DNA from: Octopus vulgaris
Lineage: Eukaryota
Direction: 5' to 3'
Assembly (NCBI GenBank): GCA_951406725.2
Contig: OX597823.1
Location: 35,836,001-35,900,000, forward strand
DNA length: 64,000 bases
A program made the translations under genes and the position numbers. This document shows, in pieces, positions 10,556 to 54,480 of the stretch. Below the pieces are notes generated by a model that saw only the letters and a list, made by a program, of their open reading frames with translations, was not told the DNA's origin and made no database searches. Numbering within the stretch: the first letter of the stretch is position 1; each line of letters opens with the position of its first letter.

Positions 10556-13400
10556 TCCAGTGATGCCTCAACCTCAACGCATGCTTGCTCATCATTAACC
10601 AAGGCATCTCTAAACCTCCCTTTAACGGCTTCTGACAACAGATAGAGCGTTTCACAAGTGGCGACTTGCCCTTCCACAAAAAATGAAAGAGCTGCCTCTC
10701 CAGCCTGATCACCCACGAATCCGAACAGGGCACGACGGTCAGGCTCTAGGTAATGACCGATGCGATAAACACGTTGGCCACCTCTGCGCTCCCTTTCAGG
10801 GATAGCCACAGCCAAGACCAGGTCTTGACTATTGCAACCGCCCTGCTCGAAACCTCCGTCCAGTTCTTCTCTATCTGGAGGCCTGGTCCAAACCAGACTC
10901 CCGGCAATTTAACCGGTCCCTCCAACCAGCGCCTAACAACACTGTCTGAAGGCATCGACTTGCCAACCCAGGTGCCAAGCTGCAACCAGACCGACTTTTC
11001 CCAGTTGATCTTTGCTCCTGCCACCGTCTCGTAAACCTCAATAGCCTTACCCACTTCACGTAGGCGTGCTACTGTGGTAACGCTGATAGAGATATCGTCC
11101 ACGTAAGCTGAAACAAACTCCTCTAAACCTGGTTCTCTCAGGATGTCACTCAACTTTCGCAGTAGGGGCTCAAGAGCCACCACATACAAAAGTGGTGAGA
11201 GCGGACATCCTTGACGAACCGAGCGTCTGATGCAGAACGGTTTCGAAAGGAAACCGTTCACCCGAACTATCGAGTCAATGTTGTGATACAGATCGATGAA
11301 CCACCAGAGGAAGCCAAGGCCCAGGCCAAACCGCGCAAGCACAGTCACCAGGTATCGATGGTCAACTCTGTCAAAAGCTTTAGATTGGTCTGAATGCACC
11401 AATGCCCCACCTTTGTCAGAGTTATCACCAACCCTCTCTATGGTATAGCGAATACGATGGAGATTATCCTGAATAGTTCTGCCTGAAATGGCACATGTCT
11501 GTGCCTCCCCGACTATACCATTCGTGACACGTGCCAACCTTTTTGCTAAAACCATGGCCAGAGTGATGGGCCTGAAATTATCTAAAACGTCCCCCTTGTC
11601 CGGGTCCTTTCTGTTCAACATCACAATCTGTGCGTGCGTCACAAATTGTGTAAATCTCCTATCAATACTAGCGAATGCGACGTGACCAGGAACTTACTCG
11701 TTTCACGAAAATATTCACTTTGCGGACCCATAACGTTGGTTGCATAAATTGCAACAAGCCTGATTGTCTTGCCACAACTGAAAGTCAGGTCGAGAACAGA
11801 CAGCCTGCCTTCTAGATCAGAAAAAAACCAACCTTTTCTCGGTTATCCGGTTTCTTTTTAGTAGGACCAACACCCCACCACCACCACCCTCCCGACTTGG
11901 AGAAACGCATTTCTCGTAGCCTTTCAGGAGAGGGAGCAGATCTCTTGGCCCTTTCACCCGGGTTTCTGTTACAAGTACATACAATTTTTTTGACCTGCTG
12001 TCATTTAGGAAGCGCCCTTGCTTCCAACTCGACATCAGGCCACGGGCATTCATACAACCAATGTGAATAGACGTGACTTACCTTTTAGATCGGGGACTCT
12101 CCACCTTTTCTTGACTTCAAATATAGATTGAAGCCTTCAAATATAGATTGATGAAAATTAAATCTCAATGATGAGACCGATTTTCTATACGCGTTAAACA
12201 AGATATTATATGTCTTTTTTTTGTCCAATTCGTAAAATTCAGAGTTTTTATATTTGTCTGAATTTGGCTGCTTTTTTTTCTTGTCTCGGCTCGCTCTGGT
12301 TTTGCTGGTTCGAGCCTTCCATTTTCCTTTTGTTGTTATTTTTCTCTCTCTCTTTCTTCTTCCTCACCGTCCGATTCTTCTTTACTTTTACAATATTTTT
12401 TAATGTGACCCAATTGGCCACACTGGAAACATCGGGGTTTATGCCCCTCAAAAAAATATTTAGAACTTCCTCCCCTACTTCTACTATTTTTAGGAACTGT
12501 TCTAAAATTTTCTGCTCTGCCTGCAGTAACAGGATGAGCTTTTTTCCATCCCAATATGTATTCTCTGTGACGGTGGCCTGCAGGAGGTTAATATTATCCT
12601 CCCTGTTTGCCAGGACTGCCGCCATCAAGCACATAGGGTTTACTCCAGGTGGAATTCTTGGAAATTCTAACCTTAGATGTTCTCATTCCCATGTAAATAG
12701 GGATTAATATTGTGTCATCCAACTCTAATGATTTTACAGAGTGTTTTTGTGCCGTTTCTGCGTTCTTGAACCTCACCACAATGGTTCCAAACTTCTTCCC
12801 TCTGGCTAGATATATAATGTCCTGCCAGATGGGTTTTAAACAGATTTCAATTTTTTGCTCACATAATCAATTTTTCGAGCTTTTAAGCAGAATGTCTTAA
12901 AAATAATAATTTTTCTTTTTTCCTCCGTTAATTCTTCTTCTGGTATTTCCACTTTTACCACTCCATCTCGTTCTGTTATCATTTCCTTGTAGTTTAATAA
13001 TTCTTTTTTGTCAGTTCCACTACCAGCTGCTGACGCAAAACTTTTCTTTCTTCATTTTGAATGGTCTTTGCTTATATATTTCTCTTGGTATCCGTAACTT
13101 TTGGTAATGCAGGGGATTCACTTTCTGAAATATTAGAAATGTTATCAAAAATTAAACTTTCAATCTTCCTCGCTTCCCGTTCGGTCGATGAATCTTCACC
13201 CGACGAAGACACACTTTTCAGCATCTTGCCAGCAATTAATGTTTTCCTCCTCAGGGGAAAACTACAGATAGCTTTCGAAAGAAAACGATAATACAATTTT
13301 TAAACAATAAGTCCAACAATAGGCACAACAAGAGATATAACGATATAACAATTAACAGAAACTTACTTTACAAATACACTCCAACAATATATGTTCAATA
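10556..13400 (-). mobile_element. L1/Tx1-like LINE, degraded and internally deleted (ORF1 + ORF2)
   Basis: ORF1 pieces with CCHC knuckle CFQCGQLGHIKKYC; APE start IGCMNARGL; RT motifs NFRPITL, DQSKAFDRVDH, RQGCPLSPLLY, AYVDDI; multiple frameshifts. Confidence 0.9.
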
Positions 13401-15099: not shown

Positions 15100-15835
15100 G
15101 ACCAAAGCCTCCCCACCAGAAATTACCAAAAACATGTAATGAAAAGAAATATTACAAGTAACTGCAGAATATGTGGAGATGGACAAGAAACAATAAATCA
15201 TATTATCTCTAGCTACCCAGTCCTGGCTAAGAAGGAATATATTCACAGACATGACAGAGTTGGAACTTACATACATTGGAAGCTATGCCAACATTATGGA
15301 ATAACAACAGAAAAAAGATGGTATAGGCACACACCAGAAAAGGTCACAGAAAACGAGAAAGCAACCATACTCTGGGATATGCCGATACACACAGATAGAG
15401 AAATTAAGGCCAACAGACCAGATATAGTTGTCAGAGACCATGAAGAAAAAAATGCTTTCTAATTGATGTATCAGTACCGGCAGATGACAACGTGTCTCTA
15501 AAAGAAATGGAGAAACTCTCAAAATACAAAGACCTGGAAATAGAGGTAACTAGAATGTGGAATCTGAAAACAGAAACAATTCCTATCATAGTAGGTGCAT
15601 TAGGCATGATAAAAAAATATTCAGACAAATACATAACAAAACACCAGGACTTACAAACACATATAACATACAGAAAATTGCACTACTAGGCACTGCACAC
15701 ATCCTACGCAGAACACTTTCCATACAATAACCATCAGAGCATCACAACAAATCACAGCACATACCCAAGGCACACAGAGCTGCGCTCGGTAGTGAAGTGA
15801 AAGCACGCTATAAAAATAAAAATAAAACTACTGAA
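15100..15835 (+). mobile_element. R4/Dong-like LINE, 5'-truncated (CCHC-like finger + RLE)
   Basis: CRICGDGQETINHIISS, RHDRV, ILWD..IHTD...NRPDIVV, KLSKYKDL, IPIIVGALG; (TAA)n on both sides. Confidence 0.92.
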
Positions 15836-19144: not shown

Positions 19145-19720
19145 AAGTGAGCGTTTCATTATTCAACATCAAAGAGAAAATATTTTTCCATGTCTTGACT
19201 TGATGACTAAGTTCCTTCAATCAGCGAATACATTGATGCATTAGTTTAAAAAATTGACATCTCTGAAACAACAGGTTCCATACAGGGGCAGTCGTGCAGC
19301 TCTTAAGAGAAACAATGAAGGATAAGGGAAATTTTGTGGTTCAATTGTTGGAACTTTCAAACGTTAACCAACCAATGCCACACAATCTGATACAGGAAAC
19401 TCTTCGAAGATACTATTTTCTCAACAACATCAATGACCTTACCTTGGATAATGTTGCAGCTTCCAGATGAGAGTTACTTCTGGATCTACAACATCAAAGT
19501 AGCACAGGCCAGAAAAAGAAATTATAACTGGTGCTTCCATTTCGATCATCCTTTTTTGCCCTTGCCATGAACTTGGTGAAGGTAGATGCCGAGGAACCCA
19601 GACAAAGACCAGCATGTAACAAGTTAAAATAACGAAATATCCAGTAAGTTCAACAGACCATTGATTACAATCCCAGAAAGTCCATGAGGTCAATTTCAAA
19701 AGATCTAATCCATGTGTCAA
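19145..19720 (+). mobile_element. Old HERO-clade non-LTR RT remnant
   Basis: VSLFNIKEKIFF, QLLRETMKDKGN...PHNLIQ, FQMRVTSGSTTSK*HRPEKEIITGASISIILFALAMNL match HERO-type RT motifs (W.RLEKGI.TGCTISVILF). Confidence 0.7.
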
Positions 19721-21359: not shown

Positions 21360-23995
21360 ATACACAACAGATTAGACTGTTAGAAAAGAAACATTTCTAA
21401 CATCGGGAAACAAGTAAACTTAGACGCCAAGAATCCTCCTAAGTATCATAGCTGTTCCTAATAACACTGTTTTTTGGAGCTGTATTAAACTGGGTTTTAT
21501 TCCTATGTCCTTTATCCATCTATTCAGATCTTTAACGATGGTTCTCAATGAACCTATAACGACTGGGATACATTTTACCCGCAGTTTCCGTAGTCTCTGT
21601 AATTCAATAGCTAAGTCCTGGTACCCTGCCTATTTTTCTATTCTTCTCACACTAATGCTTTCATCATTTGGGACAGTAAAATATATTATCTGGCACTTTC
21701 TATCCTATTTATCTACTACTACTAAATAAGGCCCCCTAGCTTCTATCACTCAGTCAGTTTGAACGTTGAATTCCCACATCTTATATTTCTTACTTTCTAG
21801 TACTTTACTAGGTTCGCGCCCATGCCATTTATCAATATATTCAAATCCTAGCTTTCTACATAGCTCTCACTGGATTATTATCACTAGATTGCCATGTCTT
21901 TTTTTGTATTCTTTCTGTGCCAGCATGCTACATTTACTTACTATGTGAGTAATGCTTTCCTCTTTTGATTTGCATAATCAACATTGGGAATCTACTTGGT
22001 TTTGCCTATTTTGGCTTTTATCCAAATAGTCCTTAATGGTTGATTTTGTGCGGCTACTAACAAGCTTTCTGTCTCCTTTTCGCCTTTCCTTCCTGCAACA
22101 ATAACCATGTGTAACTACAGCTATTTGCTCTAACTATCTTTGAGAATCTACCACGCAAAACCTTCTCCTGCAAGTCAGATAACTTTTGCTCTTTTTTCTG
22201 ATTTTTAACTTCGCTTGTGGTTTTGGGCTTTTTTCCCCTACCTCTTGCTGTTACTCTAGCAGCTTTTAATAAACTTTCTTCACTATTACCCACATAGGAG
22301 TCTATATCTTCTATAGCAAACTCCACGCAGTTTTCTACTGATGTTGATCCTCTTCCATCTTCCTTTCTAGGTAAGTATAATCTTGCTACTCCTGTCTTTG
22401 GGTGGAGTCCTCTATTCATATTGACTTCCTTCCTAGTTCTGTTTTGTTTTACTAATTCAGATTTCGTCCAATCTACAAAAGCTGCTGAGTATCTAAGTAA
22501 AGATACTGCCCAAGTATTTACAGCCTTCACTAGATTCGGACCATCTAGCTTTAACTTCATTAGTTTCCTGGCAGTTCTGATGTACTCCGTCTCAATTTCC
22601 ATTTTCATTTCTATAGTTAGTACTCTGTCAGATTCTAATACTCCAAGATACTTATAACTCTCTCCTTCTTTCAATGATTTTAATGTCCGGTTATCTGGTA
22701 ATTGGATGCCTTTGCTGACTACCTTACCACTTCTCATGACTAATATTGCATAATTATCTATGCAAAATTTTATGTCTATATCTTCGCTGAAGTGTCTTAC
22801 ACTCTCTGCAAAGGAATCTATCTCTTTTTCATTCTTACTAAAAAGCTTCAAATCATCCATGTCGAGCAAATAGTTAATTTTTCCATTACAATTTTTTAAC
22901 TGATACCCTACCTTTGCCTTCCTTTGAGGGGGATCAAACATAAGACAGATATTAAAGGGAGCAATGAGACCCCTTACAGTGTGTCACCTGAGATCTACTT
23001 TCCATTTCTTCATGCTACAGCTAATTAATTCTCTTATGCTGCCTGCTACACTGAATATACTCAAACATTAGCTTATCCATGAGTGTGGGATCCTGTCATA
23101 GGCTTACCTATAATCTATCCGTACTATTGTTAGATTTTTCTTTCTTGCTTTTACTTCATTTAGAACTGCTTTGTCTATATATAATAGATCATGCGTTCCT
23201 CTAGCCTTCTTCCTGCAACCTTTCAGTTCTTCTGGCAATAAATTCTGGTTGTCAAGGTGCTTGTAAATGCTTTCTGAAAGCATTCCTGTTAACAGCTTCC
23301 ATACTAATGATAAGCAAGTGATTGGCCAATAATTGCTAGCTGTATTACCTTTGCTCTTTCATGACGAGTTTTGTCCTCCTAGTTATACAATCTAGTATTA
23401 TTCCTCCATTGAGGCAGTCTTGAAATTGTTCCCTCAGCCTCCCATGTAAACTGCTAAATTTCTTTAGTCAGTACCCTTGAACTGAATCTGGTCCTGGGCC
23501 CTTCCAATTCGGCCTCTTTCGTAACACTCATTAATGCACTAGTTAATCTTAGATCTGTCTGCTTCACACTCATTACTTCTTCCCTCACTTTTTTTAACCA
23601 TACTATATCTCCATTATAAATTACTGGTTTATCCCAAATATTACTCCAGAACTTTCTAGCTTCTTTTGCATTAGGTATCTCATCTTCAGTACTCTCTCCG
23701 CCACTATTTATTTGGTCATAAAAATCCCCTCAGGTCTGTCTCAAATACTCTTTTCTGTTGATACTGATCTAATTTTTCTCATATCTGGAGAACTTGCCTG
23801 CTACTGGTATGATACTCTGTTTCAACTCTTCTATTACTGTCCCAAGTTCTTTCTCTTTGGCAAGTATATTTTCTCGAGGGAGAATTTGTATTTTATGATT
23901 CCTAACTTGTTCAGTTTCCAGGCTTCTATTCTACTCATTTTATTTTATAGTCTCCTTTTCCACATTTGCTTACTTAATCATTCCCTGTGAGGTAT
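21360..23995 (-). mobile_element. R4/Dong-like LINE (RT + RLE), degraded
   Basis: INYLLDMDDLKLF, YKYLGVLE, RLYLPRKEDGRG, GCRKKARGTHDLLYIDK; bounded by (TTA)n. Confidence 0.92.
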
Positions 23996-39749: not shown

Positions 39750-40320
39750 TCACTCTCAACGAAGTGAGTACAGTGGTGGCAAAACAGGATCTGTTGCAGA
39801 ACCATCCGACATCACTTACAAGATTTACAAAAACTGCTTTTACGAACTTAAGACTTTTACGAACGACCTGGAAGAAGAAAAAAATCTTGGCTCTAAAAAC
39901 TTACCTAGTTCTATTTTGTCTCAAAAGAAGAAAATTCAGTAGGACTTGATCAGTCTCGAGAGATTTTCTGGTCAATCAGTGACAAAATATTAACAACAGA
40001 TCTACTCGCCGCCAAGAGCATTGATATGAGTATCCAAAAAGGATATGCACATCACTAAGGAGGCAAAGAGGAATAACAACTCACTTTCTCTGTTCTAGTT
40101 AGATATCACCAAATCACTAAATGTGCTTCACCAGCTAATCCAATTTACGTTAGAGTAGGATCAAATACTAGAATCAGCAGTCAAGCTCACAATGTTGCAC
40201 ATGGATTTGCTGAAGATGAGACTCGCCGTGGGAAATTTCATCACTAAATGACAGAGGCTTGAAAAGGGCATTATGGCAGGTTGTACAATATCCGTAGTCC
40301 TGCTATAGATGGGAGGAAAA
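39750..40320 (+). mobile_element. Second old HERO-clade RT remnant
   Basis: PSDITYKIYKNC, IDMSIQKG, KEAKRN, K*QRLEKGIMAGCTISVVLL. Confidence 0.72.
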
Positions 40321-44289: not shown

Positions 44290-44520
44290 GCTACTCTTTT
44301 ACTCTTTTACTTGTTTCAGTCATTTGACTGTAGCCATGCTGGAGCACCGCCTTTAGTCGAGCAAATCAACCCCAGGACTTATTCTTTGAAAGCCTAGTAC
44401 TTATTCTATCGGTCTCTTTTGCCGAACCGCTAAGTTACGGGGACGTAAACACACCAGCAACGATTGTCAAGCGATGTTGGGGGAACAAACACAGACACAC
44501 AAACATATACACACACACAC
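44290..44520 (-). mobile_element. SINE family B, 3' half
   Basis: ctcttttactcttttacttgtttcagtcatttgactg...gccgaaccgctaagttacgggg. Confidence 0.9.
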
Positions 44521-44800
44521 ACATATATATATACATATACATATATAGAATAATTATATATGTATATAATTAATATTGTATATATATATACATATATTAC
44601 ATATATATATATGTATGTATATGTATATATATATATATGAATATGCATGTATATGTGTGTGTTCACATGTATTACGTGCATGTGTGAATATATATTTATA
44701 CTAAATATATATATGGGCTCTGTATAAAATGACAGGCTCTACAGTGGAGAAACTGGGTAAATTGTCAAGCTCAATATACGATACAGGAAAGGATTTATTT

Positions 44801-45513
44801 GGTGCGCATTGATGCCGTCGAGAGGTAGACCCCGAAACTGCGCGCATTCTCTCCTGATGACCCCATACACTTGTTGGCTTCCGGTATGCGGAGTTTTTGA
44901 CTGGTAGCACTTGCATGTGCAAGTTGTTTGCAAGACATCTAAGACCTTGTGGTAGGTAACCACTGACAAACCGAAAAGACGGTTAGGCATCTTGGAAAGA
45001 CGAGTGGACTGCTCGGAAAGACGAGCGGACAATAGGAAAGAATATCGACACCAGGAAAGACTGGCGGAGGCTGCGGACTTACGATCCTCGCCTTTGTAAT
45101 ATATTGTAACAGATATGAATGGAAATGACAACCCCACGATTGACCGAGAGGAGGGAGTCGAGAATCAATCAAACCCAGTCAGCACGGAAATGACCTTGGA
45201 AACGAGTACGTAAAGTCAATACCACCATGACCGATATCCAATCTACAGTGGAAAAGGCTAGCCACTGGATTTGGTTAAAAAGAGACGATGAGCGATGGCT
45301 AGAAGGATATTGAGCTTTATTTGATAACCAGTTGATCTAGCAAGCGGGACCTCATATCAGTGAGGGGGGCCGGTGCGCATTGATGCCGTCGAGAGGTAGG
45401 CCCCGAAACGACGCGCATTCTCTCCTGATGACGCTATACACTTGCTGGCTTTCGGTATGCGGAGCTTTTGACTGGTAGCACTTGCATGTGCAAGTTGTTT
45501 GCAAGTCACCTAA
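44801..45513 (+). mobile_element. Internally deleted HERO-like retroelement with ~140-bp direct terminal repeats
   Basis: Repeats 44801-44942 and 45372-45513 (period 571); ATG at 45115 gives a short N-terminus joined out of frame to TVEKASHWIWLKRDDERWLEGY* (stop 45311-45313), a HERO-type RLE C-terminus; candidate TSD TTATTT. Confidence 0.75.
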
Positions 45514-45519
45514 TTATTT

Positions 45520-54089: not shown

Positions 54090-54480
54090 TGAGTTTCTGG
54101 AAAGTTTTACTGAATTTTACAATTCCAGTGATGGATTGGATCTATAGTCTTAGAATTAGCTTTCTTCTTTCTGGTTTTGAGAAGCCTAATTTCTGAAGAT
54201 TGGTATTTAGGCAGTGTGTTACATTTTCTAGAGCCCCAATAATTACAGGTATAAACTTGAACTTGTAATCTGTATAGAGTAACTACAGATTTCTCAATAG
54301 TTCGGCATATGTGTTCTCTTTTCCACTGATCTTCAGCTTTATGTTAACATCCGCTGGGCAGCTAATTTCCACAACTGTAAAGTTTTTCTTCTTCATCTCA
54401 AATCATTATATCAGGTCTGTTGTGCTTATATTTTATTGAGGTCTTCTTTGGGTTATTCCACCAGTACTCCTTTTCATTAT
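54090..54480 (-). mobile_element. R4/NeSL-group RLE remnant
   Basis: KHNRPDI, VVEISCPADVNI, KENTYAEL, FIPVIIGAL. Confidence 0.8.

Follow-up and report, generated by a model that had tools for sequence, protein, structure and literature searches.

A hammerhead ribozyme core of rearranged topology predicted in the 3' untranslated region of R2-group retrotransposons, from a decayed copy in Octopus vulgaris and its relatives

The 3' untranslated region (UTR) of a clade of R2-group (RLE) retrotransposons, a decayed member of which lies on contig OX597823.1 of Octopus vulgaris, contains the strands of a hammerhead ribozyme core in a rearranged order, and the resulting topology is new relative to the accessible text of the literature searched. 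From the comparison of sequences, we regard it as nearly certain that this core is real and conserved, and its predicted self-cleavage as quite probable. We also incline, if only slightly, to the view that the core cuts unit-length RNA from tandem or terminally repeated copies of the element. All positions given below refer to the window, i.e. the whole stretch of 64,000 nucleotides that was analysed (GCA_951406725.2, positions 35,836,001 to 35,900,000 of the forward strand).

The initial annotation described the locus as a miniature element with direct terminal repeats, each carrying all core strands, and these strands lie where it had placed them: GCCGTC (44814, 45385), GAGAG, GAAAC (44834, 45405), CTCTC and CTGATGA (44854, 45425). 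The exact core pattern matches twice in the window and not once in 100 shuffles, and a looser descriptor composed of UH, a 5-bp stem I, GAAA, stem III and CUGANGA returns the same two matches in 64 kb on both strands, the control mean in 40 first-order Markov sequences being 0.075 per sequence. A profile search with model R1 gave no further ribozyme copy in the window. The predicted ribozyme is composed of the following parts:

45327..45476, + strand, predicted full ribozyme domain
45327-35/45468-76, + strand, stem V
45337-49/45432-48, + strand, stem IV
45350-65, + strand, hairpin H0
45366-71/45399-404, + strand, stem II
45372-78/45413-19, + strand, III-ext (extension of stem III)
45385-89/45408-12, + strand, stem III
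45391-95/45420-24, + strand, stem I
45405-08, + strand, GAAA
45425-31, + strand, CUGAUGA
45451-63, + strand, P5 hairpin (UCCG-GUAUG-CGGA)
45390..45391, + strand, predicted cleavage site GUC^G, placed as in known hammerhead cores (PMC10085705, Fig. 1 legend)

Comparison of the sequences gives the strand order stem IV strand, H0, stem II strand, block S (III-UH-I), block G (II-GAAA-III) and I-CUGANGA-IV. Of the permuted core proposed at the outset, stems I and III and the pseudoknot closure hold, but stem II had been missed. It does not come next after A9; its partner is formed by the six bases just upstream of the repeat boundary (45366-71), which pair with the strand before GAAA, and the bases after A9 pair with the strand 5' of H0, giving stem IV. 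This stem comprises 4 pairs in L010, 6 in L004, 13 in L001 and L003 and 12 in L007, and in all five of these related loci it starts at A9+1 and abuts H0, which in turn abuts stem II, with no unpaired base. In the model, stems IV, H0 and II and the core would meet at A9 in a four-way junction devoid of unpaired bases. The catac/gtatg hairpin originally drawn behind CTGATGA is not the conserved fold, its bases belonging to stem IV and to P5, and an assembly of the core between the two repeats is unneeded, a single 3' UTR containing all strands. The predicted cut falls 77 nt past the stop codon, with 123 nt of the repeat still to follow, and the equivalent position in repeat 1 is 44819/44820. P5 (45451-45463, 44880-44892) is the best conserved part outside the core, with 100% of cells paired, and its loop reads GUAUG (GUCUG in L001), with no open frame after the AUG. 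This AUG was tried as an ORF start and rejected, the frame being closed in the window and, by eye, in L003.

The order S-G-C does not agree with that of canonical type I, II or III hammerheads, which is C-G-S without core pseudoknots. Type SGC (the HRIMA-1 motif and its variants; Eckert et al. 2023, PMC10085705) is a non-circular permutation which, in the accessible text of that paper, is known from metatranscriptomes only, none having been found in genomes of known organisms. As far as this text goes, the octopus motif resembles type SGC in the order S, G, CUGANGA, in the 5-bp stem I, the short linker and the stem II strand of 5-6 bp before GAAA, and in the double pseudoknot with intact core. 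In type SGC, however, the stem II partner follows CUGAUGA(U) and a helix links the distal sides of stems I and II, whereas in the octopus motif the partner lies 5' of block S, A9 leads into stem IV beside H0, and stem III is extended instead. The permutation scheme given in the same text assumes that block C is uninterruptible, and no precedent for a break between A9 and G10.1 was met in the accessible parts of the literature; because the octopus motif violates this block rule at that very point, its core may be impaired. Neither a hammerhead in an RLE element nor a split block-C topology was found in the accessible text of the literature searched, a scope outside which most subscription papers and the Repbase reports lie, and the split topology was likewise not found in the accessible parts of PMC13725137, PMC3088659, PMC13580325, PMC7650587 and PMC5678591.

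In Rfam, no hammerhead family matched the window region at E values up to 10 or five related loci at E values up to 5. Other folds were tried and rejected: an SGC-style stem II after CUGAUGA has 16.7% of its cells paired, a value that 323 of 500 shuffles attain and that slid registers bracket with 13-44%; a CCA/UGG hairpin noticed by eye at the same place was superseded by stem IV; and an HDV-like fold, which would be a nested double pseudoknot with its catalytic C in J4/2, has no Rfam match, a J4/2-like strand not being seen by eye. Since the Rfam models miss the motif and the published SGC pattern demands a contiguous stem II, more such ribozymes may hide in genomes. Should the motif cleave, animal genomes would contain a hammerhead that is permuted non-circularly and whose CUGANGA block is separated from stem II.

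The family conservation and covariation that had been called for as a check were found among the relatives, in which the core strands are kept and the stems covary (pairing counts on alignment A4, and L007). A metagenome scan yielded 92 candidate stretches and, from these, 10 confirmed related RLE loci, in nine of which the motif follows the stop codon; the remaining one, L008, stops short of it. The looser descriptor is passed by 7 of the 10 loci. The relatives represent about 7 lineages including the window, with between-lineage identities of 65-79% in A4; L002, L005, L006 and L009 constitute one family (83-89%), and five loci stem from one assembly. A4 comprises 9 rows and 41 pairs, L007 having been omitted owing to misregistration by MAFFT. 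In this alignment 92.1% of cells pair and 13 pairs are changed on both sides, which is reached by 0 of 500 shuffles, with slid controls at 44-53%; the 41-pair model was derived from the same sequences as were counted, and the count is thus not an independent test. The two-sided changes are distributed over stems I (1), II (3), III (2), III-ext (2), IV (4) and H0 (1), those of stem II occurring in L001 and L003, and the proportion of paired cells is 100% for stem I, 89-94% for stem II and 93% for stem III. Permutation tests of the stems gave p values of 0.00005-0.012, which are inflated, stems I, II and H0 having been set by best pairing and L002, L005 and L009 being misregistered, and the test of cognate against swapped strands of stem V was modest (396/20,000).

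The best outside support for the structure model, as judged from sequence, is the distant locus L007, in which all stems checked (I, II, III, H0 and IV) pair with different letters and which model R1 matches weakly (10.8 bits, E 0.15). CUGANGA and UH are present in 10 of 10 sequences and GAAA in 8, the strand being decayed and broken in L005 and L006; L002 has a broken stem II. Position N7 is U in 8, G in 1 and A in 1 of the 10, and H17 is C in 5, A in 5 and never G, so that the variation of the core appears confined to what hammerheads allow. The viral and prokaryote collections searched for further copies gave no match beyond the fragment L011 and a chance match, L012. The former (L011, 2-187) is the opening of a bacterial MAG contig with 62 codons of the RT of this retrotransposon and without a 3' end, and is likely to reflect host contamination or a chimeric contig.

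The protein evidence places the element among the R2-group retrotransposons. A 39-residue frame at 45194-45310 matches the C-termini of RT-RLE proteins, and the full-length relatives have ORFs of 1,000-1,200 residues with PF00078 and a C-terminal PD-(D/E)xK-like endonuclease, a CCHC knuckle and PD...E motifs being recognisable by eye in P0032. Their best PDB matches, and hence the nearest solved structures, are R2 proteins, and those relatives that are named originate from Clytia, Aplysia and Branchiostoma, as uncharacterised proteins. With a single ORF comprising RT, knuckle and endonuclease, the element is an R2-group (RLE) non-LTR retrotransposon, of a clade that is provisionally labelled HERO-like.

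The locus itself is laid out as follows:

44715..44800, + strand, internal piece of the ORF (approximately residues 208-237 of full-length relatives, tblastn), fused to repeat 1
44801..44942, + strand, repeat 1, a truncated copy of the element's 3' tail with blocks S, G and CUGAUGA present
44943..44990, + strand, short leader with a hairpin at 44949-44963
44969..45068, + strand, five GA(A)AAGA motifs, four of the five capping short hairpins, across the leader and the ORF start
44990..45208, + strand, decayed ORF N-terminus (tblastn: P0040 residues 6-31, P0045 residues 25-48, P0032 residues 27-54)
45208..45209, + strand, deletion joint at which almost the entire ORF (about 1,100 codons) is lost; not the family norm
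45209..45313, + strand, last codons of the RT-RLE ORF and TGA stop (75% to P0020 residues 977-1008)
45372..45513, + strand, repeat 2, the normal 3' tail of the family, at which copies stop, with mixed flanks beyond

The repeat pair is as first described (142 nt each, spacing 571 nt, 93% identity with 10 differences), and the pieces of ORF start and ORF end recognised between the repeats agree with the full-length relatives. The element does not, however, start at 44801 as had been thought: by tblastn, 44720-44803 matches the interior of this ORF (P0032 residues 210-237, 64%, E 2e-7, and P0028 residues 117-144). The 5' end of the insertion lies near 44715, about 86 nt before repeat 1 and adjoining an (AT)n run, and repeat 1 therefore starts at a deletion or jump and not at an end of the element. 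TTATTT on both sides was considered as a target-site duplication and discarded, the upstream copy belonging to the ORF piece, and none was seen at the true ends. Repeat 1 is devoid of the 5' strands of stems II, IV and V and of H0, the stem II partner being missing in front of it; for this reason the complete core could not form there in cis, and the cleavage in both repeats that had been envisaged is unlikely at this locus. Its score with model R1 is 88.9 bits, compared with 144.5 bits for repeat 2, which is within the training set. The plain folding energy of the whole window copy is ordinary (z 0.0). The locus is likely a doubly deleted tandem copy: a copy of more than unit length would have lost most of both ORFs, after which the two tails would have decayed independently. 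A SINE-like stretch at 44330-44490, upstream of the microsatellite, presumably resembles cephalopod repeats.

Part of the stretch is contained in 20 listed runs of five organisms, and 4 of 24 listed runs were analysed. The initial annotation noted that the two repeats break stem III at different single positions, and other copies restore both pairs: most have G at 44839 (94% of the depth in X1, 91% in X11) and G at 45411 (99%), and stem IV is likewise restored by G at 45349 and C at 45433 and 45435. Because most other copies restore its stem breaks, the locus is, by this sequence evidence, a decayed member of an intact family. Upstream of 45209, most copies run on into the ORF (51 + 33 contigs and 32 + 19 RNA reads), and the loose ends before this position agree at 0.77-0.90 on one continuation (recognised as the ORF by eye), so that the deletion which yields the 571-nt spacing is untypical of the family. 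Copies share a fixed 3' end about 120 nt beyond the predicted cut and have mixed flanks there, with an agreement of only 0.40-0.46 among the loose ends that follow 44938-41 and 45504, and the 3' ends of L002, L005, L006 and L010 coincide with the repeat end. Copies terminate with CAAT or a near variant (L002, L005, L006, L010; window 45507-45514), which may reflect target pairing at priming.

The tail, designated R, runs into the leader at this locus, in L003, in X1 record 1 (44913-45136), which with 30 letters on the R side is one under the bridging rule, and in an X1 joint of 44901 to 44950. In L003, one of six loci tested, the sequence after the tail matches the window leader with a score that 3 of 2000 shuffles reach, and the hairpin at 44949-44963 has a covarying counterpart directly after the 3' tail. 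The RNA data cover two runs of one species (6% of each run); the 384 and 351 reads lie on both strands, 77-79% of them extend into unrelated sequence, and the depth over the leader is at most 1. In X24, nine molecules terminate at 45388, 2 nt short of the predicted cut, none being listed in X23; this is at most a hint of cleavage, as they could derive from one host transcript. Joints that go back 569 were rejected as signs of circles, as they reflect the choice of the aligner between the two repeats.

The 3' ends about 120 nt past the cut and the tail-to-leader junctions suggest a cycle like that of Penelope-like elements or retrozymes. Because cleavage 120 nt upstream of the fixed 3' end would deprive a single-copy RNA of the part at which priming occurs, the simplest resolution is an RNA that starts at the cut in an upstream tail. 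The working RNA would then extend from this cut through R, leader, ORF and 3' UTR to the next cut, and its two ends would be clamped by stems II, III, IV and V (about 40 bp), from where they could be ligated to a circle or serve for a template jump of the RT. Reverse transcription, primed at the end of R, would cross the junction and go round more than once, so that R or the whole ribozyme would come to lie upstream, as in Penelope pseudo-LTRs and retrozymes; copying beyond one turn would thereby account for the partial tandems at the locus and in L003. For the full-length parent element, an RNA circle is plausible.

In the accessible parts of PMC6765202 and PMC7229834, Penelope-like elements are likewise autonomous RT elements with a hammerhead near the end and tandem or partial-tandem copies, but they possess a GIY-YIG endonuclease and minimal type I hammerheads, whereas the clade described here combines an R2-group RT and a C-terminal RLE with a core that is large and permuted non-circularly. 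Metazoan non-LTR and plant LTR retrozymes (PMC7229834, accessible text) share the ribozyme sites repeated at unit length and a unit RNA that could circularise (by RtcB there); they are non-coding and have canonical type I or III hammerheads, whereas here the motif is found in coding elements of about 4 kb. With R2 and other RLE elements (PMC6765202) and the Hero clade (PMC3636483), as far as the accessible parts of these papers go, the element has in common the single RT-RLE ORF, fixed 3' ends and 5' truncation, but the ribozyme described for R2 and other RLE elements is HDV-like and 5', whereas that predicted for this clade is of the hammerhead type and belongs to the 3' UTR, about 120 nt upstream of where copies end. 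Members of the R2 group are under development for gene insertion, and in the accessible texts the ribozymes described there are 5' HDV-like. If the motif cleaves, a 3' hammerhead and a Penelope- or retrozyme-like cycle would be placed inside the R2 group, and the predicted cutting of unit-length RNA would be an unusual mode of copying for this class of elements.

An alternative, which we consider unlikely, is that the ribozyme acts in ordinary single copies, where the nicked 3' UTR would be held together by stems II-V or a short tail RNA would be released; no circle would then be formed, and the tandems would be accidents of template jumping. It is in line with this that the leader is absent after R in five of six loci with downstream sequence, that about 40 bp span the cut, and that the summed contig depth, which is not a copy number, exceeds that of the leader about 100-fold in the 3' part, as expected from 5'-truncated copies. 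However, reverse transcription would be blocked by a cut 120 nt inside the template unless the RT crossed it, a single copy would derive no obvious benefit from such a cut, and the R-to-leader junction recurs in L003 and the X1 contigs.

Rather improbable is a second alternative, that the RNA is non-catalytic in vivo and that the fold under selection is a long rod (stem IV extended by pairing of H0 with CUGAUG, stem V and P5) acting as a binding signal for the RT, the hammerhead letters being vestigial or masked. RNAalifold, which excludes pseudoknots, indeed prefers such a rod, the core being masked by pairing of H0 with CUCUC-CUGAUG, and nested minimum-energy folds pair CUGANGA in 5 of 5 intact relatives; furthermore, the loop of H0 (AUCR) hardly varies and is complementary to CUGAU, and the RNA reads span the predicted cut without a dip in the depth summed over both repeats (2 runs). 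Left unexplained by the rod, however, are the pairs of stems I, II and H0 that change on both sides, the conserved GAAA, an H17 that is never G, and the free variation of N7, by which the rod is broken in L004 and L007. By a rough sum that adds the stacking of stems I and II, the active fold is favoured by 7-17 kcal/mol before pseudoknot penalties, which could cancel this difference. In prefixes folded before CUGANGA is reached, H0 is formed fully in 4 of 6 cases and partially in 2, and for this reason the active fold may arise co-transcriptionally and relax afterwards. It is a more far-reaching and doubtful proposal that, in a widespread animal RLE clade, a hammerhead of new topology, with split block C, four-way junction and double pseudoknot, cuts the element's RNA and re-clamps it into a circle which an 'off' fold protects and from which rolling-circle TPRT proceeds at an internal start.

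The reading with which the analysis began, a non-autonomous, retrozyme-like mini-element of 571 nt with a hammerhead in each terminal repeat that is released and circularised as a unit, has become improbable. The repeats are indeed 571 nt apart with equivalent cut sites, and joining the two cut ends would rebuild one complete ribozyme. A family of such units was nevertheless not recovered, as the insertion extends further 5', with an upstream ORF piece not contained in the unit, and most copies continue past 45209; bridging of 45208/9 was found in none of the 16 pieces listed out of about 9,900 contig pieces, beyond which a rare shared joint is possible. Moreover, the stem II partner is missing from repeat 1, RNA reads give a depth near 0 in the leader, and the folding of the 571-nt unit does not surpass that of shuffles (z -0.05). 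Whereas a retrozyme is a non-autonomous multicopy unit with two competent hammerheads, repeat 1 is incomplete and the joint is not the norm of the family. A core assembled between two RNAs as a domain-swapped dimer is the least probable reading of all, since, although the cis fold requires two pseudoknots and a linker of 1-3 nt and PMC10085705 cites a report of minimal Penelope-associated hammerheads that cleave as dimers, the entire core is bracketed in cis by stems IV and V and the type-SGC RNAs published there with the same spacing of stem I, short linker and stem II cleave during transcription.

Some further features were noticed in the elements and in the window. In the most distant pair of relatives, L007 (1620-1690, also with a B-box) and L008 (1253 up to the contig end), a tRNA-like A-box lies between the stop codon and the ribozyme and could represent an internal Pol III promoter in the tail; ARAGORN called no tRNA in these stretches. 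The hairpins capped by GA(A)AAGAC (44969-45068) are a possible translation or protein-binding signal of an uncapped RNA, and the same letters would explain the GKT/WKD peptides at the N-termini of several relatives, a loose pattern to which 7 of 32 long proteins conform, at least 1 by chance. Further decayed RT pieces that are related to this clade were detected by tblastn at 40045-40305 and 19279-19556, with no ribozyme copy nearby, and other decayed non-LTR elements are indicated by weak tblastn matches, in their RT or endonuclease regions, at 10599-11603, 15444-15638, 21423-21740, 22993-23337 and 54145-54402.
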